A DNA stretch of 64,000 bases from Eledone cirrhosa (GCA_964016885.1 OZ024741.1:206522001-206586000), one strand, 5' to 3'. Positions 14,829 through 60,410 are shown, counted from the stretch's first letter. Notes: generated from the letters alone by a model not told the origin. A program made the numbers and translations.

Positions 14829-15445
14829 TGCGGGTGAATTACTATATTTACATATACTCTAGCACCACTATCTTCATCTTAAATATCGTAAACATCGCTG
14901 TCATTGTATGTATAGGAGAAGAGAAGGAAGGCGACACAAACAAGAGATGGAAAGTTTCCTTTCGTCAGCTGCTTACTACGGATCATGGATGTTTCGGCTT
15001 CTTATATACAGAACATCGATCCATAGCGCGCCAAAAAGCCATGAGGGAAGAGAGGGAAAGAAAGAAAAAAGGGAAGAAGAAAAAAACAAAAAAAAACAAG
15101 TAAACATACGGATAGAAGGGGAAACACTGGACAATGGCACATGTAACTGAGTTACCTAAGAGAAAATAGATCAAGTTAAAACAAGCCGTTGGGTTTAAGC
15201 CCGGGGCCATAATAACATAGGAACGTTTAATTCTGTGACTATTCTCAGTAAAGTTAGTGCAGAGAGAGAGAAAGACGCAGAAACCGTAATGGGATAGTGG
15301 GCAGAGGGGGTGAGTAAGAGGGATAGAGAGAGAAGGGGAGGGGAGAAGGGAAAGGGAGTTAATCCAAAAGGGCTAACGACACACGTGCAAACGGGACCGA
15401 AAAACAAGCCAGTGGAGACGGAGAGAGAGAGAGAAAGAAAGAGAG

Positions 15446-15540
<95 letters not shown>

Positions 15541-15634
15541 GAGAGAGAAAGGGAGGGAGTTGATAATTCAGAAACGGAGATATTACAGCCGACTGGATGA
15601 ATCAAAAGAAGGGCGTTCAAGAGGGCAGGTTCTG

Positions 15635-16244: not shown

Positions 16245-17321
16245 GTGTTTTACGCATTCGTCTCCAGGATGAAGCTGTGGAACTTGGTCAAGGATAAGGA
16301 GGAAGTGCAGGTGACAAGTCAGAGAAGTCGACACGAACCTTTCTCAGGCTTTTACACTCTTAGGAATGGCCTCTGCTTCTGCCGTGTCATTCCTGGACTG
16401 TTTGACGTTATTGGGGTGCCGTTTGTGCCCAAGGAGTGGCGGCTATTTATAGACAGCTTCACCACAAGTTTGAAGGCTGTCCTCCTCCACAATGGAAACA
16501 AGTTCCCGACACTGCCCCTAGCTCATTAAGTCTGCCTGAAGGAACATTACTACAGTGTGAAAGTCCTCTTGGAAGCTCTGCAATACAATCAGTACAATTG
16601 GGAAATCATTGGCGACTTCAAGATGGTAGCTTTCCTGTTTGGACTCCAAGGAGGCTTTATCAAATTTCAATGCTTCGTCTGCCTTTGGGACAGTAGAGCC
16701 ACCTCTGGCCACTACAAAAGAAAGAACTGGGAGAAGCGAACAGAATTTGTAGTTGGGACCCGGAACGTCATGTGGGAGCCACTGCACATTAAGTTGGGGT
16801 TGATGAAGCAGTTTTTGAAGGCTCTCAACCAAGAATCAGCCGCTTTTAAGTACCTTCTTGAGTTCTTCCCCAAGTTAACTGAGGTCAAAACCAAAGGTGG
16901 AATTTTTGTTGGACCTCAGATAAAGAAGGTGTTTGAGTCTACCGAGTTCTCCAATAAGCTCAATAGGATTGAGAGAACAGCATGGAACTGTTTCAAGTCA
17001 GTTGTTAAGGGCTTCCTGGGCAACTATAGAGCTGAAAACTACCAGCAACTGGTGCAGGATCTGATAAAGGCTTTTGGCGCCATGAGATGCAGGATGTCGC
17101 TTAAACTCCATATGCTGGACGCTCACCTGGAAAAATTCAAGGACAATATGGGCGCCTACTCAGAAGAACAAGGCGAACGATTCCACCAAGATGTGAAAGA
17201 GATAGAGCGGAGGTACCAGGGCCACTACAATGAAAAAATGATGGGGGACTATATCTGGGGGCTAGTGCGGGAATGCGACCTGGACTACAACCGCAAATCC
17301 AGGAAATCCAGTCATTTCTGA
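16245..17321 (+). pseudogene. Chapaev3 transposase, N-terminally truncated, one in-frame stop at 16527
   Basis: WRLFIDS..SLKAVLLHNGN; GDFKMV..L.GLQGGF.K..CF.CLWDSR; LHIKLGLMKQF; SLKLH.L..HL; SEEQGERFHQD..ERRYQG. The two track ORFs share one frame. Confidence 0.9.
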
Positions 17322-33060: not shown

Positions 33061-33139
<79 letters not shown>

Positions 33140-33152
33140 TTACCTACCTATC
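33061..33152. repeat. (TATC)n microsatellite, 5' flank of Tx1 copy 1
   Basis: Direct reading. Confidence 0.95.
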
Positions 33153-33531
33153 ATCTAGCTGTCGTCTGTTCTACAGTGTGGATGTAATTCACTTCGCGCA
33201 GAAGTTTTGTTCAAATATATTGCGGAAATTTTGTAAGTTCAAATTTAATTTTGATACTATTGTGTAGCTTGACCCCCCGTCTGACTGTCAGGCGGTGGGT
33301 CAGCTCATCTTTACCCCTCCTAGAGGTGAACAACCTGTTTTTAAAAATTTTGTGGCAAAAAACAATTTCAATCGTCTGACAGAAATGTTAAACGAAGCGA
33401 ACGAAAATAGTGGTGGGGGACAGCGGTAAGAGTTGTAAGCTCGCACGCTTTAGTCCCCCCTTCCTTCCCAACTAACGTCATAGAGAAGGAAGGAAAAAAT
33501 AAAATAAAAACAGACGAATCTGCGGAGAAAA

Positions 33532-35288
33532 ATGACGAAAACACAAATCTGGACATGGATTCCAACAACGAAAAAAAAAAAAATTGAAAAATTGCATGAC
33601 AATATTAATACCACAAAGAAAGACACAACAAACACAAAAATAACATTTGAAAACAACATCATAACAGAAATCAAAGCAGACGACAAAGTCAACAAGATTT
33701 CATTTGCACAAACAACAAAGAAATCTTTGACATATATACCTGAAAATATTTCAGATGTGGCACGAAGAATCACAGACTCCAAACAATACATAAGTGAAGG
33801 AGAGAATGGTATTTTATCGGTAAAAATGCCTCAAGAACTCACCAAAGACATTGAAAGTCGAACGGTCGTGTTCCGCACCATCAACAACACTTCAAAAAAA
33901 CCTGAACAGCCAACTCAAGCAGATATCAAAACAGTACTCACAGAAGTACTTAATGAAACCACTTTCATAATAAAAGACAGACTGTATGGAAGCCTAGCAA
34001 TTATTATGAAGAACGAATCGGCGGCAAAAAAATGTGCTTTGTCACCGATTCGTTCGAAAATGTTTACCTTTTATCCATCTTATATGGGGAAAAGAACTCA
34101 ACGCATATGGCTGGATGCAATGATGCCAGATGTGGACTACTGCTGGCTCATAGCTTGCTTCATCGATCCAGCGAATGACAACGTGATTTCCATTGGGAAA
34201 ACCACAGGCAATGCGTTCAGTGGAACAGGTATAGAGCTGGTAGTGCAAATGAAGCCTGAACGCATCGCCCGAATACCCGACAGAATCCTATTAGAGGGCC
34301 ACGGGTATATAAACATTAGCGTGGAGGGGGGAAGGCGTCCTGTCATATCTGTGCAGGCAGAGGGCACCCGAAGGCCGCTTGTCCCCAACTCAACAAAAAG
34401 AAAACCCTGCTACCAACACCAGCTCCACCACCACCACCACAACAGATAAACAAACAACAAAACTCAGTCCCACCCAACCCGTCCCTCAGTAAAACTACAC
34501 CACCACCACAACACAAACAGTCACAACACATTACCCCAAAACAAAATACAGGCCCACCCAACCCCTCACTCAATAAAACAACACAACCACCGCAGACACA
34601 ACACACAACACAGTCTAACATAGTGACATCCATCTCCCCCACAAAGAAAACCAACACGGAAACATTACCAGCAAACATACCTCTTCCCTCCAACACTGAA
34701 GATAACCCAACGAATTCGGAGGAAGAAACGGAGTCCTTCAGACAGATTAAAAGGAAAAAAAGAAAACATTTGCAAAACACACAAGGCCAAACAACCCCCA
34801 CCCAAATGTCAACACAATCCAACAAAACAGAAAACACCCCTCCAGCAGCAAACAAAACCAAACCTGCCCCTCCCCTCTTCGAAACACTCACACCATCCGA
34901 AAAAAAGACATTACACTATACTTACATAAACAGAAACAATAATAAATTAAATGAACTCATATACAATAATCCTTCGGTACAAACCGAAGGTGTAAACTTT
35001 GTTTCTTCAGAAAACTACCCACATTTAACATTAATAAAGATCCCAATGAACCTCTACCAAAAACTAAAAAAGGATTTTAAGGAGGACGCAGGACCACCCT
35101 CTGTCAAACCCATAAACCGCGTCCTACTAAAAAGCTTTCCCCCTCCCCTTCCCCTCCCCAACACAACTCCAAACACCCCAACCCCACCACATACTGACGA
35201 CCCCACACCACCACAAGACACCCCTTCACCCAACACCCCCGACCCCGTGGAAGTCGTGCGACCCGAACCCCGGGAAGCGGAAAGGTAG
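33532..35288 (+). pseudogene. Tx1 ORF1 (nucleic-acid binding, CCHC knuckle), frameshifted at the G run near 34326-34332
   Basis: CHICAGRGHPKAAC (CX2CX4HX4C) at 34341 is in the frame of the 34623-35288 ORF; Pro/Thr-rich C-terminus; homologous to copy 2 ORF1. Confidence 0.8.
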
Positions 35289-35321
35289 GTCTCTACACTC
35301 TCCTTTGGCTCTGCCGCCCAC

Positions 35322-38300
35322 ATGGATGTGTTAAGAGTAGGATGTTTGAATGCACATGGCCTGGGCTCAACTTGGAAGCAAGCAAAGCTTCTAAATGACC
35401 TCAGGTCATGTGGTATAAATGTAATGGTTATCTGTGAGACTCGGATCAGCGTCGTGCGGCAGCTGGCCCCTACCTTCGATGACTTTGAGGTGCATGCATC
35501 TCTCTGTCAACCTGGAGGTGGGGGTGGGGTTGTCGTACTGCTGCAAAAACACCTGGGTCTTGCCGTACAGGTTGTGCACTCGGACCCGGAGGGTCGTTTG
35601 TTGGTGCTAGACGTTGGCAGTAGTGAAGGTGCGGCCTTGAGACTGGTCGCCGTCTACTCCCCTTTCGGAGCTGAACGGCCCGACTTCTTCCAGCGTTTGG
35701 AGACTTTTCTGGGAACGTCGCGTTCCCTGCTTCTAGCGGAGGATTGGAATGACATCCTAGATGCACGTTGGGACTATGCAGGAGCATGTCCTAATAGAGG
35801 GGGTGTAACAGCCTCAAGGGGTTACTCGACCGTTTTAACTTGGTCGATAGATATCGACTAGATTTTCCAACTGTGCCTACCTGGACTTGGAGAAACCACA
35901 GTGGTCAATCTAGATCGTACTTAGATAGATTCTTAGTTAGAAGTAAGGATAGGGACATATTAAGCTGTCCAGAAATGCGCATGGTTGGCTACACGGATCA
36001 CAAATTAGTGACCTGCGTAGTCAATCTCGAGAAAACACATAAACAGTGTCCCGGTTACTGGAAACTTAATTTGTCTTTACCGGCAAAAGAGACTTACAGA
36101 AACCGGATTAGCAGATTAGTTAAGGAGAGGTTGACGGGTGCAATCGTCAACAACCGATGGTGGGCATCTCTCAAAAGAGAGATTAGAACAGAATCAATAA
36201 GTTATAGCAAGATGTTAGCTGCCGATAGGAATAGAAACGAGAAAGAATTAACAGGTAAATTAGAAGAGGCAATCAAGAGCGAAGATGTGGCCAGAGTGCT
36301 GGCATCGAGGACGGCCTTGAACCAGTTTTTCGATGCACAGCACGAAGGCTGTGTCATTCGAAGTAAAATACGTGCTCTAGGTAATGAGGGGGCCAAAGCC
36401 GTTGGCTGGGCCCGCGTGACAGAAGCTAAGAGTGGAAATCGATCCACCATCCGGTCGTTGCAAGACGAAGATGGACGGGTGATCCGGGAGCCTAAGCAGA
36501 TGTGCGAGGCTTTTCAAAGGCACTTTGCCCGATTGTTCGGGGGAGGCGAGGGTCCGGGCGGGGATGTGGATTTCGGTCCATACCTCGACGGCCTGCCGCG
36601 TCTCTCGAGCGAAGAGGCAGAGTCCTGCGAGGGACCAATCTCGGCTGATGAGATCAGCGATGCGCTGAGCCAATGCAGCAGACGCAAATCTCCAGGTCTC
36701 GATGGTATACCTTACGAACTTTATTTAGCAATGCCGGTCTTCTTCTCCGAACTCCTCGAAGCGGTCTACTGCAATTGGCAGCAGAACGGGAGAATTCCTT
36801 GTTCTTTAGCCAAGGGCGTAGTCACGCTGGTGAGGAAGGACGAGAACAAGGGAGATAGTATAAATAATTTTCGGCCCATAACCCTGCTAAACACAGAGTT
36901 AAAGATTTTGGCCAAGGTGTTAGCAAAGAGGTTGGCGCTTGTCATGGGTGGCCTGGTGGGAGATGCGCAGACATGTGCTATCCCATCCAGGTCCATTCAA
37001 TATAACCTCCACCTCATGCGATACATCATAGAGAGGGTTGGCCACAAACCCGGCTTCGGTGGGGCCCTGATCAACTTGGATCAGTCTAAGGCCTTCGATA
37101 GGGTCGACCATGGTTACCTGGATGCGGTCCTAGCGGCGGCTGGGTTCGGTCCTGTTTTCAGAGGCTGGATCACTGCCTTACATAGCAACCACATCTGTTC
37201 TAGGATCAAGGTGAACGGCTACCTTTCGAAGCCGTTCGAAATCACACGATCCATTCGACAGGGGTGCCCTCTCTCCTCCCTTCTGTACGTATTGATTCTC
37301 GAGCCTTTACTGAGGAAGTTGGAGTTGTTGCAGGGTATCCTCCTGGAACCAGGATTGAGCAAAGCGGTGTCGGCCTACGCCAATGACGTAACAGTAATGG
37401 TATCGACCGACTCGGAGATCGAGGCGATCGGTACCTTACTGGAGGATTACGAAAGGTTGTCAGGAGCGAAACTGAACCGGGAAAAATCCATCGGGCTGCA
37501 ACTCGGAACGTGGAGAGGCAGACCGATGCCTCCCGACGGTGTCGTCGGATACTGGACGGAGGGCCCGGTAAGGTTGCTTGGGGTCTGGTTTGGACCGGAC
37601 CTCCAGGTGGAAAATAACTGGAACGAGGTTACGAACAAGGTGTTTGCACTAACCCAGAAATGGGCCAAGTGTAAGCTGTCCCTAAAAGGCCGGGCGGAGG
37701 TGGCGAACATTTACATAGCGTCTGTCACTTACTACCGCCTGACTGTCGTGCCTTGCCCTAAGGAAACACTCACCACCATGGAACGCATGCTCTTCCAATT
37801 TCTTTGGAAGAAGCGCCCTCCTGTGGTGAGAAGATCCATCTGCTGCCAACAACCTTCGAAAGGAGGGCTGGGGATGCCGTGGTTGATAATGCGTAGGCAC
37901 GCATTAAGGCTACGGCACCTACAGGTATTCCTCACTGGTCAACCGGTGTGGGCTCCGTTCGTGAAACGAGCCTTTCCGAGACTCGTCTCGCTCACCGAGC
38001 TGCAGTCCTGGGTCAAGCAAAGATCCGGAAAACTGGGACACTGGCACACTGAGTGTGCTCAGGCGCTCAGGGCTCTCTGGCAAGCGGGCCAGGCCGTCGG
38101 TGGAGAATCCACCTCATCATTCTATAGAGGGCTGGTGGCTAGCAGGGGCGATGACACCCTTGGAGAGTCGCTGGACATGGAAGAGGAGGAACTGGCCAGC
38201 CTGTTCGGTAGGACTTTCGGCCCGGGACCAATGGACAACTTCCAGAAGTCACTAGCCTGGCAGTGCTACCGGGGTGCTCTACCCGTTCGAGAGAGGCTCT

Positions 38301-38758
38301 ACAGACACGGGCGCCCGGGCAGGGATCCCTCAAAAAAGATTTGCCCTAGATGCGTGCGTCACGAAGAAACCGTTGCGCACGCATTGGTGCAATGTCCGGG
38401 CGTGGCTGATCTGTGGGGATACGCCGAACGACTGCTGTCGCGGGTGGCGCCGATTCAATTGACCGCCGAGTCCGTGATGACAATCAAACCGCCTCCCCTC
38501 TTCACAAAGGAAGCAAAGGCGGTTTTTCTGTGCGTAATAGCCATGTTGAAAGAGGTTGCTTGGTGGACACGATTGAAAGGTCTGAGGTCAGGCAACTTCC
38601 TCTCTGGCCATAGTCTGGTCTACTTCTTCCGATATCACTTCGGAAGAAGGATAAGAATGGAGAGAGAGGTACTTGGCCACAGGCAGTTTTATGAAAGGTG
38701 GGTGATAGTGGCGAGAATGGCTCGTGTAAATGGGCCTTCTCTGTATACCATCCTGTAG
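35322..38758 (+). pseudogene. Tx1 ORF2: AP endonuclease, reverse transcriptase, C-terminal zinc finger; one frameshift near 35800, YADD changed to YAND
   Basis: LNAHGL, ICET, SYLDRFL, TDHK, YWKLN, KSPGLDG, NFRPITLLN, LDQSKAFDRVDH, IRQGCPLS, YAND at 37376, CPRC....ETVAHALVQC. Confidence 0.93.
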
Positions 38759-39001
38759 ATAAAGAAGTAAAGGAGAGGGGAGCACCTTCTCCATGTGCTC
38801 CCCGGGCAAAGGATTGCACACTTTTTCGGGGGTGTGTGCAACCCCCATCACGTCCCCTCCCTTTTGAGGTTATTTTCGATTATTTTCATTTTATACCCTT
38901 TTTACTCGATTGTATGTAAACTCCCCCTTTGTATTTGTCCCTTCTTTTTATGCCTTTATGGTAAATAAAGAAATATATCTATCTATCTACCTATCTATCT
39001 A

Positions 39002-42000
39002 TGACCGGACGTGCGATACATCGTCGGTAAGACTTTGTAAAATTTTCTACACAAAAACAGAATTTATTATGTGAAACTTTTTATTGTTTGATAGATTAAC
39101 ACCCAGGCTGAATTGTCAACTGAGTGGTAATCTCAGGTTTCGCCCCACAGGGGCGGAAACTTTATTTGAAAAAATTTCCTAACTTTAACAATGTGTGACT
39201 TACAGGGAATGCTAGACAGCGAGAAGAGAGGGAAAGAGACAGATATAAGCGTTATATCTCCCTCTACTTCCATAGAAGTATCTATGGAGACAAACAACAA
39301 AAAAACTTCGTTTCGTAAAGAAATGGATATTTGCACAACAAAAGATGAAAATAACAGCCCACAACAGACATAAAAAAATACAGAAAATGCAGAAATTGAA
39401 ATAATTAACACAATTAACACAACTACACACGAAAAAACCAACAACCACAACCAAAACTAAAAAAACAACATTCGCACAGACTGTAATAAAAAAAAGACAG
39501 AATATAAAGAGTTGGACATCAGCAATTCAAAACAGATGTTGTCTGATGCGAAACAATTTATAACATTTGAAGAAAAGAGTGGATTTCCTACAAACTCATC
39601 CTTGGAAATTAAACAAGAAACAGTTCGAAGAACGGTAACCTTCAGAACTATCTCAAATCAAATAAAAAAGCCGGTATTCCTCAGTCAAGGGGAAATTGAA
39701 AACACCTTGAAAAAGGCTCTGCGGGACATTGATTTTATGCAGAGGGCCAGACTATATGGTGGATTTGGGCGGGGTTCGTGGAGCCAGAAAATGATGTAAT
39801 TCTTTCGGTCAGGAAGTCGACCAGACAAAGGTGGGCTGGTACCAATTTGGAGCTTCTGGTGCAGATGAGGCCGGAGAGAATCTCAAAAATACGCCAAAAG
39901 GTCCTAGTCGACAACAACAACTACATTAACATTTCGGTTGAGGGACGAAACCACATTGCTTTCGTTGCAATAGCACCACACATCTAAAGGCTCCTGCTCT
40001 TTACAAAAACGCTCAAACAAAACGATCCAAAAGAAAATACAGTTACCAACACCAACACCAAAACAACCACCACCACAACAACAACAACACACGAAACAAG
40101 CAAACACACCAAAACAGACAGCCACTCAACCAACAACAACAGAAAAAAACACAGACAACACCCCCGAAGAACACAGCCCCACCCCATCACACTCCATCAA
40201 ACACTATCACAAACACACACACCGAAACACCACCACCACACAACATACCCCTACCCAAAACTCCTGACGAGGATTATTCATGAGGCTGCTTCGCCTTCTT
40301 TAAGTGAACAAGAAGGAGAGCCTCGGAAATAAAACAAAAAACAAAAAAAGAAACACCACAAAAACCCCCAAAACTCCAATCACCAACACCAACACACAAC
40401 CACAGACACAAACAACACCACAGTCAAACATCCCCCTACCAGCAAAACCAACACCAACACCACCCCAAACACAAGCACTGACCATAAAAAGAAAACTCCC
40501 AGACGAACAACAAACTAAAACAACACAACAAAAACACAAACAACAATACGCATACATCAACACAAACAACAAGAGTTTGATGGAGGTCATCTCCAAAAAC
40601 CCCAAGGTAGAGACGGATAGCAAAACTTTCATTAAAGCAGAATCGTCTCCACACCTTAAACCATTAAGGGTTTCTATGGAAACCTATAGTGACCTGAAGA
40701 ATAAATTTTCGCAGGACGTGGGCAACCCCTGCCAGAAACCCATCAACCGCCTCCTGTTAAAATTCCCCCCCAACACCCCCCCCAACACCCAAATGGAGAT
40801 TGAACAACCCGATCTCCAGGAAACGAAAAGGTAAGTGCACCTTTATGTCCTTTATCGCCAACTCTTCTCCACCAACATGGCTAGTTTACGAGTTGGAAGC
40901 GTGAATGAGCGTGGCTTAGGGATTCCCTGGAAACAGGGCCAACTTTTAAACCTTAGGTCACATGGTATGGATGTGAGAGCCATCACCGCGTCCAGAATCC
41001 ACAACAGGCAGCAACAAACCCCATCTTCAATGACTTTGAGATCTACGCATCGCTCTATCAGCCAGGAGGTGGAGGGGGAGTGGCTGTCATGTTTCAGAAA
41101 AACCTGGACGCCGAAGTACGGCAAGTACACTTGGACCCGGAGGGTAGACTGGTAGTTCTAGACGTGAACAGTATTGGAGGTGGAGCCTTCAGACTGGTGG
41201 CCGTTTATACCCAGACCGGGCAATCGCAATCGCGGCCACACTTCTTTAAGCGTCTAGAGTCTTTTCTGGGAACGTCTCGCTCCTTACTTTTAGTGGGTGA
41301 CTGGAATGGTATCCTAGATGCACGATAGGACTATGTGGGAGCATGTTCCAGTAGTAGAGGGGGGGGGGGGTGCAACAGCCTCAACAATCTAATCGGCCAA
41401 ATCAAACTGGCCGATAGATATCGACTAGATTTCCCGACTGCACCGCAGTGGACGTGGGCAAACCGCAACCGGACATCTAGATCGTATTTAGATAGGTTTT
41501 TCAATAGAGAGAAGGACAAGAAGATGTTAAGCTGTCCACAAATGCACATGGTTCCCTATTCAAACTAGTCATCTGTAGAGTCAACCGTGATAGAATACAT
41601 ATACAAGGACTCGGATACTGGAAGCTGAACGTGTCGCTAACGACACGTAAAGCCTATAGTGAATGGGTAAGTAGATTAGTTAAGCAACAATTGATGGGAG
41701 CCATCGTCAACAACAGATGGTGGTTCTCCCTCAAGAAAGCAATTAGAGTAGAGTCGATAGACTTTAGCAGAGAGTTAGCCTTAGAGAGAAACAAAACAGA
41801 AACAGAACTAGCAGCCAAGGTAGAGGAGGCGCTTACGAGTGACAACGTAGCTAGAGTGCTAGCAACGAGAACAGCACTTGACCAGTTCTTCGACGCGAAA
41901 CACGAAGGCTGCGTGGTCATATGTAAATCACGTGCTCTAGGAAATGTGGGAGCAGAACGGGAGAATTCCTAGTTCTGCAGGCAGGGCGTAGTAACGCTGA

Positions 42001-44070
42001 TCAGGAAAAACTAGAATAAGGGGGACGAACTAAGCAACTTTAGGCCCATAACTCTGCTCAATACAGAGTTAAACATTTTGGCCAAGGTATTGGCAACGAG
42101 GTTGGCGCTTGTCGTCGAGAACCTGGTAGGGAAAGCGCTAACATGTGCAATCCCGACCAGGTCCATACACGACAACCTCCACCTCAGGCGATACAACATA
42201 GAGAGGGTGGTGTGTAAACACGGCTTTGGTGGGGCTCTGATCAGTTTAGATCAGTCTAAGGCGTTCGATAGGGTCGACCATCGATATTTGGAAGTGGTTC
42301 TCAAGGCGGCTGGTTTCGGACCCGTCTTCAGAAGCTGGATTGCTGGAATGCACACCACCATCTGCTCGATAGTCAGGTGAACGGCTACCTATCGGAGCCG
42401 TTCGCAATCAGGTGTTCCATCCGACAGGAATGCCCTCTCTCCTCCATTCTGTACGTACTGACTCTAGAGCCACTACTGCGGAAGCTGGAGCTGCGGCAGG
42501 GCATTCCCTTGGAACCGGGATTGCGGAAAATTGCGTCGGCTTGTGCCGACGACGTGGCGGTGATGGCGTCGGAAGCCTCCGAAATTGGGGTGAACGGCAG
42601 CTTACTGCAGGAATACGAAAGGCTCACAGGAGCAAATCTGAACCCGGACGTGGAGAGGCAAACCGATGCCGTCCGACAGCGTCGTCGGACGCTGGACGGA
42701 TGGACCGGTGAAATTGCTCGGGTCTGGTTCGATCCTGACGTCCAGGTGGAGAAAAACTGGAACGAGGTCACGGCCAAGATGTCTGTGCTCACCCAGAAAT
42801 GGGCAGATTGCAAACTATCATTGAAAGGTCGAGCGGAGGTGGCGAACACTTTCATAGCGTCCGCCATCTATTACCGCTTGACTGTCGTACCTTGTCCCCG
42901 TGAACACCTCACCAAGATGGAACGCATGCTCTTCCAGTTCCTTTGGTTCCACTGGTGAGGAGATCCGTCTGCTGTCAGCGCCCTTCCAACGGAGGGCTGG
43001 GAATGCCGTGGCTGATGATGCGCAAGCATGCGCTGAGGCTATGGCATCTTCAGGTAATCCTCACCGACCCCCAATCGGTGTGGGCACCGTTTGTGAGACA
43101 GGCCTTCCCGCAACTTGTCTCGCTGACGGAGCTGCAGTCCTGGGTCAAGCGAAGACCGAAGAAGCTAGGCGCCTGGCACATTGAATGCGCTCAGGCGCTC
43201 ACAGTCCTCTGTCAAGCTGGCACGGTAATCAGTGGAGACTCCACTTCGACATTCTATAGAGGGTTAGTACGTCACAAGGGCGACGACGTGCTCGGAGAGA
43301 CTCTAGACGTCGAAGACGACGAACTCACCAGTCCGTTTGGTAGGACTTTAGCCTGGGACCCATGGACAACTTCCAGAGGTCCCTGGCCTGGCAGTGTTAC
43401 CGAGGAGCTTTACCAGTTCGTGACAAGATCTACAGGCATCGACGTGTGGGATACTTCCAAGAGGACGTGTCCAAGATGCGCGCAGGACATTGAAACTGTC
43501 CTGCACGCAATTGTACACTGCCCAGGCGAAACCGACCTGTGGAAGTACGCGTAACAACTGCTGTCATGTATGGGACAAATCCAGTTGGCTGCCGAGTCCA
43601 TAGTAAGTATCAAACCGCCAACTTCTTTCAAAAACGAAAGAGAGGCGGTTTTCCTCTGTATAGTGGTTATGGTGAAAGAGGTTATATGGTGGACGAGATT
43701 GAGAGGACTGAGGACAGATGCCTTTCTCTCTGGACAACAATTGATTCCCTTCTTTAAGTATCACTTTAGAAGGAGAATCAGAGTGGAGAGAGAGGCACTG
43801 CACCCCAGTAAATTTACTGAAAGGTGGGTGAATGAAGCGAAAATGGCCCGAGTGATTGGGCCTTCTCTGTTTATAAGCCTGTAGGTTGAGGAAGAGAGCA
43901 AAGGGAAGAAAAGGGCACTTGCACAACACGCTCCTGGAGTTGAGGGAATTCGATTGTTGTAATTGTTGTAATTGTTTGTTTTTATATTTTTTACACGACT
44001 GTATGTAACATCCCCGGCATGTCTTTGTATTGTCCCCTTTTGTTGTTGCGCCCTTGTGGCTAATAGAGAA
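39002..44070 (+). mobile_element. L1/Tx1-clade LINE (copy 2), more decayed, with internal deletions
   Basis: ORF1 remnants 39191-40834; ORF2 remnants 40877-43884 (GDWN, LDQSKAFDRVDH, CADD, CPRC..ET..H...HC); about 390 bp missing near 41951 relative to copy 1; (TATC)n on both sides. Confidence 0.9.
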
Positions 44071-44083
44071 ATCTATCTGTCTG

Positions 44084-44134
<51 letters not shown>

Positions 44135-44157
44135 CTCTGTCTGTCCCCCCTTTCTCT

Positions 44158-44188
<31 letters not shown>

Positions 44189-44413
44189 AACAATTAAGTA
44201 AAAAATGTACATCTACATATGCATACTGAAATACTAGTGTGTATATGAATACACACACGTATACATATGTAGGTGTACCAAGTCTTTCACTGGTCGCTTT
44301 ACAGTGAGCGGCCCAGCTATTCTGTATGTAAACACACAGACAAACCGGTTTTTAGAGTCATACTGGTTTTTTGGGGAACACCTTCCCCCTATTCTCCAGA
44401 AAGCCAGACAAGG

Positions 44414-44458
44414 AATATTGAACTAGTTTCGTTGTTGTTACAACTCATCAGCAATATT
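44414..44458 (-). ncRNA. Minimal hammerhead ribozyme, unit 1
   Basis: aatattg-CTGATGA-gttgt-aaca-acaac-GAAA-cta-GTT^caatatt; palindromic AACTAGTT in stem III. Confidence 0.88.
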
Positions 44459-44880
44459 TACCTATCTACCGGCCTTTCTGGAGAATTGTAAAAGCACATA
44501 TCGTTATATGCTTTTTCTATGAAAATTAGTAGTGGGCAGACTAATTTGCATAGAGTGTGAGTACGCACCGGTTCAGCGGAGACGATAAAAACAAATAACG
44601 AAACGAAATTAAATTTCGTTTCGTTTGTAACTCACTTTTGTATGACTGACGCTTAAACAATTAAGTTAAAAATGTACATCTACATATGCATACTGAAATA
44701 CTAGTGTGTATATGAATACACACACGTATACATATGTAGGTGTACCAAGTCTTTCACTGGTCGCTTTACAGTGAGCGGCCCAGCTATTCTGTATGTAAAC
44801 ACACAGACAAACCGGTTTTTAGAGTCATACTGGTTTTTGGGGGAACACCTTCCCACTATTCTCCAGAAAGCCAGACAAGG

Positions 44881-44925
44881 AATATTGAACTAGTTTCGTT
44901 GTTGTTACAACTCATCAGCAATATT
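44881..44925 (-). ncRNA. Minimal hammerhead ribozyme, unit 2
   Basis: Identical to 44414-44458, offset by exactly 467 bp. Confidence 0.88.
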
Positions 44926-45263
44926 TACCTATCTACCGGCCTTTCTGGAGAATTGTAAAAGCACATATCGTTATATGCTTTTTCTATTCTGGAGAATAGG
45001 GGGAAGGTGTTCCCCCCCAAACCAGTATGACTCTAAAAACCGGTTTGTCTGTGTGTTTACATACAGAATAGCTGGGCCGCTCACTGTAAAGCGACCAGTG
45101 AAAGACTTGGTACACCTACATATGTATACGTGTGTGTATTCATATACACACTAGTATTTGAGTATGCATATGTAGATGTACATTTTTAACTTAATTGTTT
45201 AAGCGTCAGTCATACAAAAGTGAGTTACAAACGAAACGAAATTTAATTTCGTTTCGTTATTTG

Positions 45264-45337
<74 letters not shown>

Positions 45338-52240: not shown

Positions 52241-53218
52241 AACAGTTCAACATATAATATTATTTGGGATTGGTAATATAACAAAGCACTGTGACATTTA
52301 CAGCCATTTTAAAGAATACTTGTCACTCCGTTTTTCTCCTCCCTCCGTATCTTCACTCAAGCAAAACCACTTTGCTTTATTTCTTTATTTAGTTGACATA
52401 TCAGAGCCTGGTTAACACCAATTCTTTTCATTCCACTACGATCAATTTTGCTGCACACTAGACTCTTTTAATATATTTAAAACTAACTTTACTAGTACAG
52501 TCTAATATATTTCGATCACTTCCTTTTTAATATCAATTGGTATATATATATATTACACATTTAAAACAATTATATATAGCAAGTTTGTGATATTCTATCA
52601 CAAATGTCTTATTGCATATTTTATCATATGTTTTGCAGCTGATAAAAAACAAAATCATTCATATCACCTTTCAACATTCCTCAGCTATTATGATTTATTC
52701 TTTACGAACATACCATTCTTTTTTTTTTCTAATACAAGTCATTCTAGCATTGTCTTGGATTCAAATGGTCTTTAGGTATTTTTTTCATATTTTAAGATTT
52801 TTCAAACACACACAGACACACGTGCACACACATACAAACACATACACAGAGACTCTCGCATACACACATGCATACACACACGTACGCTCAAATGCACACA
52901 TTCAAACGTATACAGAGAGAGCGCGAGAGAGAGAGCGAGAGCGAGAGAGAGAGAGATTGTGTGTGTGTGAGAGAGAAAGAAAAAGAGAGAAGGGAGAGAA
53001 AGAGAGAGAAAAGAAGAGTGAGGAATATGAAAATATTTGTATTAACAAGAGGACAATATTCTTAGCAGTGCCCACGTTTCTACCATCACCAGCATTACTA
53101 GAATCCTACGCAATATATTGAGCCTCTGAAATCAACGACTGATCTGAGGTCAATTAACATGCTACACCTAGCAACTGATTGCTAGAGAAATCTTACAAAA
53201 AGGAGAAAAATTATTATA

Positions 53219-54067
53219 CTTGGGGAAACTCTAGGCGTCGACGAAAATCAACTAGCCAATCTCTTCGGAAGAACTTTCGGGCCAGGGCCTATGGACAACT
53301 TCCAGAAATCTCTGGCCTGGCAGTGCTACCGAGGAGCCTTGCCAGTTCGGGATAAACTCTACAGGCATGGAGGTGCCGTCAGCCGGGCATGTCCGGGATG
53401 CGCGCAGGGCGACGAAACCGTCCTGCACGCACTCGTCCAGTGTCCGAAAATTGCTGACTTGTGGGTTTATGTCGAACACCTGCTGTCGCGTTTAGGACGG
53501 ATCCAGCTATCATCTGAGTCTATCGTGAGGATTGCCCCGCCCTCCTCCTTTAGCCGGGAAGGGCAGGCAGTTTTTATCTGTCTGGTGGCCATGGCGAAAG
53601 AGATAGTATGGTGGACACGTTTGAAAGGGCTGAAGACGAGCACTTACCTCTTCGGTGATGCTCTGATTGACTTTTTCAAATTTCATTTGAAAAGGAAAAT
53701 CAGAGTAGAGAAGGAAGTGCTCTCTTCCCAGCATTTTGTTGAAAGATGGGTGAGAGAAGCAAGAATGGCCCGAGTGAATGGGCCGACTCTGAGTATATAT
53801 CTGTAAACTAAAGGTGGAAAACTGGGAGAGGGCACTTGCCTTGGTGGTCAGGGTCATTGTGGCTTTTTACTGGGCTTTCTCCACAAATGTCCCTCCGAAG
53901 TCTCCCCCCTATTGGGGAATTTTTCATTGTTATTTTCATTGTTATTTTTGTTACATCCTCTGTTTTTGTCTTTTTACACGCAGGAATGCCCATTTGTACC
54001 GTCCTGCATTGTCCTGCACTGTCCTTAATGTCTACTTTATGTAAGCGCTTGTGGTTAATAAAGAAAT
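53219..54067 (+). mobile_element. 5'-truncated Tx1 LINE (copy 3), ORF2 C-terminus and 3' UTR
   Basis: MDNFQKSLAWQCYRGALPVR...CPGC..ETVLHALVQC...ARMARVNGP, close to copy 1; ends aataaagaaatc then (ATT)n. Confidence 0.9.
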
Positions 54068-54075
54068 CATTATTA

Positions 54076-54170
54076 TTGTTACGGCCCTTGCCATTCTGAG
54101 TTCAAATCTCAGTAATGCACTGGGATAATTGATGGCCTTGTGCCTAAAGTAGAAACAATTATTATTATTA
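54076..54170 (+). mobile_element. Internally deleted SINE copy
   Basis: B-box region gagttcaaatc joined directly to cagtaatgcactggg...agtagaaacaattatt. Confidence 0.8.
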
Positions 54171-54171
54171 T

Positions 54172-57100
54172 TGTTCTTAGTGCGCCAAATCCTTTTTACC
54201 TCCCACTTTAAGTCCTGGTATCGGTTAATTTTCTCCCTCTCCTTCTCTTGCACTCTCGTGTCGAATGGGCAGGCCACATCCACAATCAGACACGATCTTT
54301 TTTCCTTGTCCAAAACCACCAAGTCAGCTCTATTGCGTTCCAGTTTCTTGTCCGTCTGTTTCCTAAAATCCCACAGCACCTTCACCTGATCGTTTTCTAT
54401 CACCGACTCTGGCTTATGCTCATACCACTTTTCAGAATGTGGTAAATTGTTTACTTTGCATAGGTGCCAGTGGATCACCCTGCCCATCAGATCATGTCTC
54501 CAGCCTTTATAGTGCGTCTGGGCTAGGTGTTTACACTCGGATACAATGTGAGCCACAGTCTCCTCTCTCTCTCCACAGATCCTGCACAGTGGGCTAGCCT
54601 CATCCTTGTAAATATGGTGTTTCAACCACTTCGTTTTGAGGGCCTGCACTTGCGCAGCCATTAGCATTCCTTCTGTAGCCTGTTAAGGTCTCCTCTTTTC
54701 AACCAGTTCCATGTCTGTGGATCGCTGAATTCAGTTTTTTTAAAGAAGGTACTATGAAGGGATTTTTCATGAAGGCTGCTCTTTCTCCTTGTTGTTATTT
54801 CCTCCTTGGACATCCCCTGGTCTATTGTCCTCTTCTTCCGTACAATTCTGAGCATTGGCTCCTTACTATCAGTCACGTATTTGTGTAGGTTGTTTTTCTC
54901 CATCTGAACACAGTCCTCTATGCTGATAAGACCTCTTCCACCTTCAGATCTCGTTAAGTAGAGTCTATCGACATCACTCCTCTTGTGGAACATGTTGTAG
55001 ATAGACAATAGCTTCATAGTTTTCCTATCGATTTCTTTTTGTTCTGCAACATTCCATCTCAGAATTCCTGTACTGTACCTAATAATAGACACAGCTCGGG
55101 AATTTACTGCACTTATGGCATTCCTACTGTTCATGTGTGACTTTAATACGCTCCTTATTCTCCGAATGTATCCAGATCTTATTAATTCCTTCATCTTTTT
55201 GTTCTTGATATCATCAGCCTCCAGAACACCCGAATACTTGTATCCTTCTTCAGTGTCAATTTCCTTTATCATCTCACCTGCTGGTACCTGGATTCCGTTG
55301 CTTCTGCTCAATAAACCCTTCTTCATCACAAGGACTCCACACTTACTAATACCAAATTGCATACATATATCATTGCTGAAAATACGGACAGTGTCAACAA
55401 GCACATCCAACTCCTTCTCACTCTGCCCGAAGAGCTTAAGATAGTCCATGAAGTGGAGGTGATTGATGGTAAGCTCTCCCTTTCCCAACTTGTATCCTGC
55501 TCTCACTTTTTGCAGTATAATGGTCAGGGGCATCAAGGCAAGGACAAACAACAGACGGGACAGACTATCTCACTGGAAGATACCTCTCTTGATCTTCACG
55601 CCTCCCAAGGATTCTCCAGCTGATGTTAACTCTGTTTTCCAGGACTTCATACTTTTGCCAAACAACTGTCTGATGTTATCTGCCACCTTGAAGATCTCTA
55701 GGATTTTGGTGATCCAAGAATGAGGCACCATGTCAAATGGCTTTTTGTAGTCTATCCATCCCATGGCAAGACCAGTGTGTCTCCTCTTGCAATTCCTCAT
55801 TACCATCTTATCAATAAGTAACTGGTCCTTTGTACCATGGGACTTCTTTCGGCATCCTTTCTGTTCGCCCGGTAACAAGTTGTTTGTGTGGAGGTGATGG
55901 TAGATTTCCTCAGACATAATGCTTGTCAACAGTTTCCACATTACGGACAGACATGTGATAGGTCTATAGTTGGTAACATCATTACCCTTGATTCGGTCTT
56001 TCATTACCAGAACACTGGTACCTTTTGTCAACCACTCTGGTACTTCACCTGACATCAAGTAGTCATTGCACATGTTGTCAGTTTCGTGTGGAGGGATGTT
56101 ATATTTTTAATCCAATTCCCCTGCACACCATCTGGGCCTTGTGATTTCCAGTTGGTTAGTTTTTTGGCCTGCCCCTTAAGGGTTTCAACTGTGATACTCA
56201 AATCAATTTGTTGGTGTGCCTTTTAACTAATCTCCTTTTGTACTGTCTCAATCCACACTGCCTGGTCATTATGTTTAACATCCTGCTCCCATATTCCTCT
56301 CCAGAATGTCTTAGTTTGTTACGCCTCAGGGATCAAGTCGTTGCCTCTTTCTTTCCCTTCAAGCTGTCCAAACAGCATCTTTCGGTTGTTGTCAAACATA
56401 CGGTTCTGTCTTTACTGACTGACTCTGCTCTCGTATCGCCTAATTTTTGTATTCTTTGCTATAATGCGTTGCTTCAGTTCCTCTATGATAATATTTAGCT
56501 TTTTCCTCCTAGTTTTGTACTTTATTTCCAGTCTATTTTTGTGTCTATGTTTTGTAATGTCCCATTCAGTAGGGACTCAAGCTTTCCAATATCCTTTCTC
56601 ATTTCCCTGATTTGACCATTCAGTCGTTTCTTCCACCAAGGTTCTGATCTTTCTTGTTTGTTGTTTCCTCTCGCTTTTATGCCAAGTAATTTCCTCACCG
56701 CATTTGCTGTTGCTTTGAGGATATTGTTGCACTGGTGAAGGCTCCTCGCCTCAAGGTATGGGATGACTTTGTTTACCTTAGCTGTTGTTTCTTTTAACTT
56801 TTTCCTGTCTACAAATCTTAGGTTCATAGGTTTCCCACTATCATTGTTCAATTCATCTACCACTAAGTTTAGGATATCAACCAAATCTTGTCCTAGCCCG
56901 TCAGCATTCATCTCCTCAATGGCCGTATCTTTGTTCCAGTTATTATTTATTTCAGCATTCAGATTATTGTCTGCTTCGGATGGTTCCTGCGTTCTCTCAA
57001 CCTCTTCACCTTCATTTCCCACTGGCTCGTTTGCCTGGCATACTCCACTCTCCATTTCCAACCTAATCTCTCTGCTCAGTTCCTCCAGTTCCAGCTCGCT

Positions 57101-57393
57101 TATCCACCCATTAGTTCTTATTACCCGAGCCTGCCCGGCCAATTTTTGTTCATCTAATTTAAATAGACCAATCTCGTTCCAGATGTTATGCATCCGTTTC
57201 CTATAGCCTTTCTCCTTGGGGTTACTCTTCAGGTAACATTGCATAACAGTTCTATTCAATTCTTTCGTTCAGTTGGTTCTGGTCCCTTTCCTTCTTCTTC
57301 TTCCACCGACACCAGCAGTATTTGGTTGACAGCCAGGTCCCTGCTGCTGAGCCAGGGAGCACCTGCTGGGTGAGAGTCTGTAACATGACATTC
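54172..57393 (-). mobile_element. R4/Dong-clade non-LTR retrotransposon (copy A), frameshifted and 3'-truncated
   Basis: N-terminal GYRKRM..IW..EQKL..Q..I...GW; [38 protein letters not shown]; CRIC...ETVAHIVSEC; RLE RADL..IVDVACP.D..EK..RY.DL. Confidence 0.9.
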
Positions 57394-57396
57394 CAT

Positions 57397-57443
57397 TAGT
57401 AATGCACTGGGTAATTGCTGGCCTTGTGCCTAAAGTAGAAACA

Positions 57444-57496
<53 letters not shown>
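57397..57496 (+). mobile_element. SINE 3' fragment with long (ATT)n tail
   Basis: agtaatgcactggg...agtagaaaca(att)n. Confidence 0.85.
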
Positions 57497-57497
<1 letters not shown>

Positions 57498-57695
57498 AGG
57501 CGGTGAATTGGCAGTATCGGTAGAGGGCTGGACGCCATGCTTTCTAGCATAGTTACGTCCCTTTACGGTCTGAGTTCAAATCCCGCCAAGGTTAACTTTG
57601 CCTTTCATCCTTACGGGGTCGATAAAATAAAGTACCAGTAATGTACTGGTTAATTGCTGGCCTTGTGCCTAAAGTAGAAACAATTATTATTATTA
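57498..57695 (+). mobile_element. tRNA-derived SINE, full length
   Basis: A box TGGCAGTATCGG, B box GAGTTCAAATCC, central gcctttcatccttacggggtcgataaa (resembles the MetaSINE/Sauria-type core), (ATT)n tail. Confidence 0.92.
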
Positions 57696-57699
57696 TTTT

Positions 57700-60410
57700 T
57701 ATTGCATTTATCTTGCTTTATTGTTCATACGAGTTATCACCAAGTCACAACCAGTGACCTCAAAAGACAACAATGTCCGCCATGTTCAAGAAAGAACATA
57801 CATATTCACACATGCATCTTTAGTGTTTAGACTTGTGATGTACTTATATTGACAGAATCTTCCTTAGTATATGGGCAGTTCCCATTAATACTATCTTTTG
57901 TATTTCTCCTATACGCGGGTTTCCTGGGATTTGCAATATGTAATCATTAGACCCCTTAGGTATCATTCCCAGAGCGCCTACAACCACTGGTATTGTTTTA
58001 GTTCTCAATTTCCACATTTTTCCAATTTCTATCTCCAGGTCCTTATACTTGCTCAATTTTTCAAATGTTTTTATAGATACATTCTTGTCTATTGGAACAG
58101 ACATATCAATTAGCAGGCATACCCTCTTTTGAAAGTCTTTCAATATTATATCAGGTCTGTTTGCATCTATTTTTCGGTCTGTTTGGATGCTAAAGTTCCA
58201 CAAGATTGAGATGTGATCTTTTTCAAGTATGGGAGGTGGTTGATGCTCCCACCAATTCTTTTGATGGGGCAGGTCAAAATGCTTACACATTATCCAATGT
58301 ATGTATTGTGCAGCTCTGTCATGCCTGTTTAGGTATTCGGTTAGAGCTATAGGACTGCACATTGAAATTATATGGTCAATGGTCTCTGTTTTTTTTTTGC
58401 ATACACGGCATAATGGGCTGCACCCATTTTTTATTATGTTGGCTTGGTAATTTTTTGTTGGCAGACACTGATCTTGTGCCGATATAATCAGTCCTTCAGT
58501 CTCCGATTTCAGTCCAGAGGATGCCAACCACTGATGGGTTAAAGTTTTGTCAACATCAGGATTGTTAGCTCGCTCTGGGTATTTTCCATACAGAGGCTTT
58601 TCTTGCCATTTCTTAGCCAGTTTCTGTAGCAGTTCTTTCTTTGCAGTTACTTTTACCTGCTTTGCTTTTTCTGTGTTTTCCATTTCAGCAGTAAATGTGA
58701 CTTCTGAAATTTGTAGTCCATTACTGTATCTTTGTGCATCTTTTGTAATGGAATATGATCTTTTGATGCTTTCGTGTTTCAAAACGAGTTTGATCATCCA
58801 ATCATGTGATTCCCTTAGATATGTAGATAATCCAATTGTTGCAGTTTTCAACGCAATATCTAACTGGATTAACCCACGTCCTCCTTCTTTCCTAGGGAGA
58901 TATATTCTATCTATATCTGCCTTAGGGTGATGCATTCTGTGCATGGTTAAGAATTTTCGAATTTTTGTATCGAGCCTACGGATCTCTGTGCTTGACCAGT
59001 TGATGACATTGTAACTGTAGGTTACTACTGGTATGGCAAGCGTGTTTATGGCATCGATCCTATTCCTTGCATTCAATTCCGTTCTTAAGATTGCTCTTAC
59101 TCTGCGGTAACATTCCTTCCTTATCCTTTCCCACATTGTCGAGTGCTTGATTCCGTCTCCTTCACAAACACCTAGATATTTGTTAGTTTCCTCTTGATTA
59201 AGTTCTCTTATCACATTCCCCCCGATCAAGATTAATGTCTGAACTTTTCAGCAGCTTTCCTCTGGTGAACGTTGCTTTGGCGCATTTATCTAGTCCAAAC
59301 GCCATCTTAATGTCATCACTGAACTGCTTCACAGTGGATAATAGCCCTTGCAATTGTTCATCATTTTTTGCAAATAGTTTCAGGTCATCCATGTAGAACA
59401 AGTGATTAATGGTTTTGTCATAGACTTTATATCCATGTTTTTTTTCATTGAGCATTTTACTTATTAATGGTATAAGTGCGATGCAGAATAATAACGGTGA
59501 TAAATAGTCACCCTGAAAAATTCCACAATTAATATTAACTTTTTCAGCTTCCAGTGATTCCTTTTCACTATTCAAAAGGAGTGTCGTTTTCCATGTCTTC
59601 ATACTGAATGATAAGAACCTGCTGACAACGGGAGATATTTTGAAAATCTCTAAACATTTTTCAATCCAACTGTGTGGCAAACTATCGAATGCTTTTTTAT
59701 AATCTATCCAAGCAATTGATAGATTTTTGTGTCTATTATGACAATCTTCCAGTATCATTTTGTTAACCAAATGCTGATCCTTACAGCCATATGAGCCTCG
59801 TTTACACCCTTTCTACTCAATGGGAATTGGGTCATTTGTTATCAGGTGGTCATATATATATTCAGTTAGGACTGATGTTAAAATTTTATACATTGTGGTC
59901 AAGCAAGTTATCGGTCGTAATTTTTGGGATTGTTTGTCTCATCATTCTTCGGAAGCAGGAATATAATGCCGTTAACTAGCCATGATGGTATCTTTTCTGG
60001 CTCCTTAACTATTTCATTGTAAAGTTGGGCTAACAGCTCATGAGACTCTGTGAAGGCATTTATCCAAAAATTTGGATTTTGTCTTTTTCTGGGGATTTCC
60101 ATTTGCTGGTTTTTCTAAGAGCCAAACGCAACTGTTCAACCGTTATATTTTTCCATATTTGTTCCTCAAGGTGAGCTGTATCTCTCATTTGTCTGTCTAT
60201 CCATGGGGCATGTATATTATGAACTTTTTCTTCGGCCCAGATCTTTTCCCAGAATTCTTGCACATCCTCCTTGGGTGGTATTGATTTAGCAGTTATTGTT
60301 GACTTACCAATTTTTCTGTAGAAGTTTCTTTGGTTAATTTTGAACATATTGTCCTTATAGAATCTAGATCGTTTTTCAAAGCGAATTTCTCTGTTTCCTT
60401 TTCTCACAGA
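57700..60410 (-). mobile_element. R4/Dong-clade retrotransposon (copy B), 5'-truncated, with 3' UTR
   Basis: [37 protein letters not shown]...ETIDHIISMC, RPDII..LIDMSVP.D..EK.SKY.DL, PVVVGALG; stop at 57844; ends in (TAA)n. Confidence 0.92.

Follow-up and report, generated by a model that had tools for sequence, protein, structure and literature searches.

Tx1-type LINEs of Eledone cirrhosa insert in one orientation at TATCT motifs, mostly within (TATC)n microsatellites

In a 64,000-nt stretch of the Eledone cirrhosa genome (OZ024741.1:206522001-206586000; hereafter the window), two LINEs, E1 and E2, stand in tandem and each is bounded by (TATC)n, which raises the question whether this microsatellite is the target at which such elements insert or a tail that they bring along. 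Target choice by LINEs matters for targeted gene insertion, and how APE-type LINEs choose and change their targets is still poorly understood (PMC3812793).

Two LINEs of different age between TATC tracts

The first-pass annotation had placed three TATC tracts and two LINEs here, both with 3' ends joining TATC and lacking poly(A), and had judged the copies too divergent for a recent duplication. All three tracts were present when the coordinates were rechecked (Table 1), and they are the only pure (TATC)3+ tracts on the plus strand of the window, all of them junctions of E1 or E2. ORF1 remnants, an APE-like N-terminus, a reverse transcriptase (RT) and a C-terminal zinc finger are found in both elements, which also share a terminus, AATA(A/G)AGAA-AT(A/C), followed directly by TATC; that of E2 reads AATAGAGAA-ATC, ends at 44073 and, like that of E1 at 38975, lacks poly(A).

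Table 1. Features of the window, with positions counted from its first nucleotide
Feature	Position	Strand	Remarks
(TATC)n tract upstream of E1	33061..33152	+	pure (TATC)19 at 33061-33136, imperfect to 33152
E1, full-length young Tx1-type LINE copy, frameshift-broken	33153..38975	+	
E1 ORF1, frameshifted	33385..35288	+	
E1 ORF2	35322..38758	+	APE endonuclease, RT, C-terminal zinc finger; single frameshift near 35800
E1 3' UTR	38759..38975	+	terminus AATAAAGAA-ATA, without poly(A)
TATC spacer, 3' side of E1 and 5' side of E2	38976..39001	+	three pure TATC units, a TACC, then two further units
E2, older decayed full-length relative	about 39002..44073	+	two internal deletions
E2 ORF2 remnants	40868-43884	+	
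(TATC)n tract downstream of E2	44074..44142	+	repeat from 44071
E3, 5'-truncated copy of the (ATT)n sister family	53217..54068	+	terminus AATAAAGAA-ATC, then ATT units

The ORF2 DNA of E1 and E2 is 70-74% identical and their ORF1 and UTRs are barely alignable, which excludes a recent duplication, in agreement with the first-pass annotation; E1 and E2 are two separate copies of different age. E1 differs in ORF2 by 0.9% from its family majority, and E2 is broken by many frameshifts and has lost about 150 and 380 bp at two internal places, as the comparison with its relatives, which are 77-91% identical, shows. The age gap, together with a candidate 24-nt target-site duplication (33129-33152 against 38976-38999, two mismatches), suggests that the young E1 landed in the TATC tract just upstream of the old E2.

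Target preference of the E1 family

Candidates for E1 ends numbered 825 and 1186 at first look, and the best 40 of each, mostly full-length, were scored. Both ends were fetched for 64 E1 loci, of which 61 were kept after a chimera (L149), a locus with no 3' end (L151) and a duplicate of L175 (L176) had been dropped; left out besides were a nested, ambiguous locus (L012), 10 further 3' matches and those 11 of 40 E2-like loci that lacked both ends. The 47 full-length copies differ from each other by a mean of 2.1% and from their majority by a mean of 1.1%. Most copies of the family are broken. In one, ORF2 is intact over 1156 codons, with matches to Pfam Exo_endo_phos (E 7e-9) for the APE, RVT_1 (E 2e-26) for the RT and zf-RVT (E 8e-6) for the zinc finger; in others, ORF1 is open over 699 codons and encodes a single CCHC knuckle, read by eye as CX2CX4HX4C, for which the match to Pfam zf-CCHC is no better than E 0.28. 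Among PDB entries the intact ORF2 best matches human L1 ORF2 (E 1e-49; R2 at E 6e-19), to which the catalytic motifs of its APE align. The architecture, an ORF1 and an ORF2 with N-terminal APE, RT and C-terminal zinc finger, is that of the L1 group, and both 5' truncation and target-site duplications, marks of target-primed reverse transcription (TPRT), occur among the copies. The closest named protein to the E1-type RT comes from Argonauta hians (66% in the RT), an atlas look-up of a homologue returned generic names only, and folding of the 3' UTR is unremarkable (z -1.86).

After AATAAAGAA, all 61 E1 copies continue with ATATATCT (39), ATCTATCT (14) or ATATATAT (8), and none carries poly(A), though AATAAA sits 6 nt ahead of the junction. 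On the other side, the 40 nt upstream contain at least one TATC unit in 56 copies, at least two in 46, at least three in 42 and at least five in 28, compared with 3, 0, 0 and 0 copies when the opposite strand is read and with 18%, 0.16%, 0.03% and 0.02% in a 200-kb background; five copies have no TATC there. Target preference in the Tx1 clade is recognised in PMC4494074 when more than 20% of flanks belong to one sequence type, and here 42 of 61 do. Truncated copies carry TATC upstream as well (at least one unit in 8 of 9, at least three in 4 of 9), so that it is not a leader of the element. In 44 of the 61 the TATC run before the element exceeds the one behind it; downstream, the longest runs of some copies come to 15-19 units, and arrays may have lengthened once the element was in place. 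Agreement is weaker among E2-like copies, with at least one TATC unit upstream in 26 of 29 and at least three in 13 of 29; four of 30 E2-like 3' ends read, by eye, ATC-AATAT.

Loose target-site duplications accompany 53 of the 61 E1 copies and none is detectable in the other eight. Chance matches occur between repeat flanks, an exact 14-mer being shared by 18% of mismatched pairings, and a strict set was therefore used, in which 17 of 61 copies have exact duplications, against 2 of 3660 mismatched control pairings. These are 15-21 nt long and start with TATCT (14) or TATAT (3); as no more than 7 of the 17 have TATC immediately before them, the core is a short sequence, and several duplications lie in unique DNA with a single TATCT or TATAT. 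The insertion point falls within an array of at least three units in 36 of 53 reconstructed sites versus 27 of 997 background TATCT pentamers, an enrichment whose factor is rough, as the 200-kb background holds only five arrays. TATAT pentamers number 10,132 in the background, so that TA repeats are ten times commoner than TATCT and yet rarely used. As the end of the element matches the repeat, the nick can be placed only to within 3 nt. A relative's 3' end lies within 150 nt upstream of 19 of the 61 copies, hence tandem pairs like E1 and E2 are common.

Empty paralogous sites already carry the motif. The host of copy L168 is an old repeat, and in all 24 of its paralogues the duplicated stretch is present once and continues, by eye, into the downstream flank (12 of 24 passing the BLAST threshold for flank continuity), many of them reading CTATCTATCTGT, or nearly so, at that point. 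These paralogues came from a similarity search; the exact 22-nt empty-site pattern for L168 matched only its own locus. Another paralogue of this host has been entered at the same base by a member of another subfamily (L436). A second, unclassified host repeat (at L200-L229), which supplies landing sites for E1-family copies, has 2967 exact end matches and mostly finishes with TATC/TA repeats; of 30 copies, 29 lack a same-strand Tx1 match within 600 nt. At the truncated copy L014, sequencing reads from four runs left the unique flanks uncovered and gave no joint.

The repeat is thus the target and not just a tail: the core is TATCT, sometimes TATAT, and arrays are preferred but not required. 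The first-pass annotation had proposed a (TATC)n/(GATA)n-targeting family, to be judged by the 5' flanks of other copies and by empty sites. Both bear it out, the flanks being enriched in one orientation with truncated copies included, and paralogous empty sites in both host repeats holding a TATCT-type motif beforehand. The one-strand preference for TATC therefore stands, while strict (TATC)n specificity gives way to the short TATCT/TATAT core.

Kinship and sister families

As stand-ins for named Tx1 elements, the best relatives from metagenomes were used, six of which lie beside U2 genes and one of which is joined to 5S. Rfam found U2 in 6, 5S in 1 and U1 in 1 of the 60 metagenome loci searched out of 80; tRNA targets were not found among 60 of the 80 relatives, and no metagenome relative exceeds about 45% identity or has a TATC tract. 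The elements at U2 genes with a TATCT junction are L230, L233, L237, L240, L242 and L243; L251 joins 5S, L269 has a putative U1 link with U1 downstream, and L249 ends in poly(A)-TATCTGTTC yet groups elsewhere in the tree. In an RT tree of 69 rows (outgroup unnamed, no mammalian L1; L280, L294, L281 and L248 dropped because of long branches or unusual make-up), the TATC elements group together (100/99) within an octopod group that includes the ATT family (100/100), and a wider clade of 48 rows (98/98) unites the octopod group with the rows flanked by U2 or 5S. Membership in Tx1, as first annotated, is supported by this kinship with U2- and 5S-inserted elements, which here represent Keno and Mutsu in place of named Repbase sequences. 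Mutsu targets 5S genes. Keno targets U2 snRNA genes (PMC4494074). Relatives from Patella caerulea fall among the U2-flanked rows; their locus tags run consecutively along a single contig, which suggests a tandem array in a multicopy target.

The six Keno-like elements share the TATCT junction core with the octopod group at 38-41% RT identity. Their 3' end reads poly(A)-AG followed by TATCTGTTCTTATC, and the 5' flank ends in the same stretch; unlike the octopod elements, they have poly(A), a duplication starting 1-2 nt before TATCT and a clade of their own (100/100) that excludes the octopod group. The common core may reflect an ancestral liking or convergence. A derivation from Keno, which the shared TATCT had prompted, finds no support in the RT trees, which do not nest the octopod group in the U2 clade. 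U2 was not seen as a current target: none of the 61 E1 flanks is U2-like by eye, and all 14 inspected U2 sites (of 77) are uninterrupted. At G000:C3:307.34-307.46 Mb, where U2 snRNA genes recur in tandem every 2219 bp, the units inspected are uninterrupted too.

The E1 family belongs to a larger group. The terminal pattern TGGYWAATAAAGAAA occurs 31,026 times in the 3.0-Gb genome (reversed control, 63), and two bases after it follow TATCT in 14,958 and ATTAT in 10,771 cases, counts that are lower bounds since length variants are missed. E3 represents the family at ATT. Of the 19 copies of this family whose 5' end could be resolved, 16 have at least three ATT units upstream, namely all 10 full-length and 6 of the 9 truncated ones, against a background of 0.4%, and none of 28 copies shows two TATC units; left out were nine loci with a different 5' half and two with ends outside the locus. 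Those nine, of 20 long E3-family loci, are joined near reference position 2264, just before ORF2, and likely represent a swap of ORF1 and the 5' part. Compared with E1, the ATT family is 65% identical in ORF2 and 60.5% in the APE, and the predicted specificity loop differs little. A TGGTTA variant precedes 95 ATTAT and no TATCT ends (by eye, among the first 100 places listed). A third subfamily, about 76% identical to E1 in the C-terminal part, joins a 72-bp minisatellite in fixed register at its 3' end and accounts for 9 of 30 unselected termini, six of them in one cluster; the loci are L430, L433, L444-L449 and L454 (G000:C1:0.56-5.6 Mb), with six copies stacked at about 5.9-kb spacing. Intact ORF2 frames persist in two of the three sister lineages. 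TATC targeting thus holds, and what had been annotated as one targeting family is an entire group of several subfamilies, with sister families that use other repeats. Three close sister lineages with three targets in one genome offer a natural set for testing landing-site choice, thousands of insertion sites allow deep target logos, and with about 31,000 termini the group shapes the GATA and ATT microsatellite landscape of the genome.

E3 adjoins, tail to tail, one of two RT elements on the minus strand of the window (54032-59812), which have C-terminal CCHC and nuclease-like motifs, are separated by (ATT)17 at 57444-57496 and, by these motifs, are presumably R4/Dong-like. Dong/R4 elements have a restriction-like endonuclease and belong to a different clade from the Tx1-type group. 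Their reported target, (TAA)n (PMC3812793), is the microsatellite of the ATT sister family on the other strand.

Target choice and its alternatives

Judged on sequence, it is probable that E1 and E2 are independent Tx1-type insertions of a group that inserts in one orientation at TATCT, mostly in (TATC)n, with 15-21-nt duplications, likely since its APE nicks the GATA strand there and primes reverse transcription. The endonuclease would cut the bottom (GATA) strand at the motif and free a 3' end, ...AGATA, that would prime on the 3' end of the RNA, probably with a few bases of pairing. The RNA would end in ...AUA-UAU and may continue into the flanking repeat, a read-through that would explain the absent poly(A), and a top-strand nick 15-21 nt downstream would produce the duplication. 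Each insertion would regenerate TATC on both sides, and later copies would for this reason land beside earlier ones. This model draws on established TPRT and on published specificity of the Tx1L endonuclease, which nicks its own target almost exclusively (PMC1950540), and on the published view that the endonuclease mainly sets the target (PMC4494074).

The main rival, which we consider unlikely, is that the target is chosen mostly through RNA-DNA pairing, a read-through tail pairing at the nicks of a loosely specific APE so that the target is inherited from the donor's site. In its favour, poly(A) is lacking behind AATAAA in every copy, the minimal targets amount to the microhomology TAT of the element end, and three sister families with similar APEs use three different repeats. 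Where the 5' copy of the duplication has TATT or TATA, the 3' copy has TATC in L166 and L022, but the change runs the other way in L126 and L145, and TATAT stays uncorrected in L137, L171 and L178; the mismatched copies thus give mixed evidence for RNA-templated correction. Against pairing as the selector, 26 of 31 sites have C at base -1, which would be unpaired with the RNA (partly due to arrays), and the U2-inserted relatives hold a fixed site with a poly(A) tail. An extended version, more speculative and somewhat less probable again, has the RNA remember its landing site: transcripts would pass AAUAAA into the donor repeat, the tail would select among nicks, and an off-target master would found a family with a new target (TATC, ATT or the 72-bp minisatellite), all from an old APE liking for TATCT shared with the U2-targeting Keno-like elements.

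Broad insertion with later accumulation in, or seeding of, TATC arrays by selection or slippage is very improbable. Passive accumulation has been reported for Drosophila Waldo-A/B (PMC3812793), and this genome is microsatellite-rich, but the polarity (on the opposite strand, no copy with at least three units), the fixed base register, the youth of the copies and the rare use of the far commoner TA repeats all speak against it. That TATC is only a templated 3' tail or co-transcribed 5' leader of random insertions has next to no probability left, for, although every 3' end joins TAT(C/A) and some downstream runs are long, upstream runs are mostly longer and also precede truncated copies, and the empty paralogues and the strict duplications, which start with TATCT even where their tails are unique, refute it, barring assembly artefacts in the duplications.

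Compared by description, the closest parallels are the microsatellite-targeting Tx1 elements of teleosts, Kibi at (TC)n and Koshi at (TTC)n, and the crocodilian Tx1-1_Crp group at (TTCC)n/(TTTC)n (PMC4494074; PMC3812793). All are APE LINEs of the Tx1 neighbourhood in pyrimidine-rich microsatellites; the present group differs in its use of TATC (ATT in the sister family), its mollusc host and its about 31,000 termini. None of the four repeats was found as a target of the E1 family, whose duplications start with TATCT or TATAT, and TC tracts near some E1 copies do not lie at the junction. Waldo at (ACAY)n and SART1 at (TTAGG)n (PMC3812793; PMC7265360), the latter needing three repeats and a poly(A) tail, also combine an APE with a need or preference for tandemly repeated units; they belong to the R1 clade of insects, whereas the E1 group also uses single motifs, without poly(A). 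The octopod elements therefore represent a new target for a known strategy, Tx1 microsatellite targeting. That such a family is not yet described, as the first-pass annotation had it, holds for the literature searched, article texts as distinct from Repbase, Dfam and supplements, in which a TATC/GATA-targeting Tx1 was not found; 13 recently active L1-Tx1 families of Octopus vulgaris are reported with targets unnamed in the text available (among PMC4494074, PMC3812793, PMC13282606, PMC4640811 and PMC3747384). An earlier description in Repbase, Dfam, Kojima and Fujiwara 2004 or supplements is a distinct possibility, though we lean against it.

Elsewhere in the window, a near-perfect palindromic, duplicated block lies just downstream of E2 (44187-45270), with a 700-bp inverted match at 90% and a 334-bp direct match at 99%. 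A 263-codon open frame at 16530-17321 (+), with no Pfam match and transposase-like by appearance, lies downstream of a GATA/GA tract at 15421-15559.
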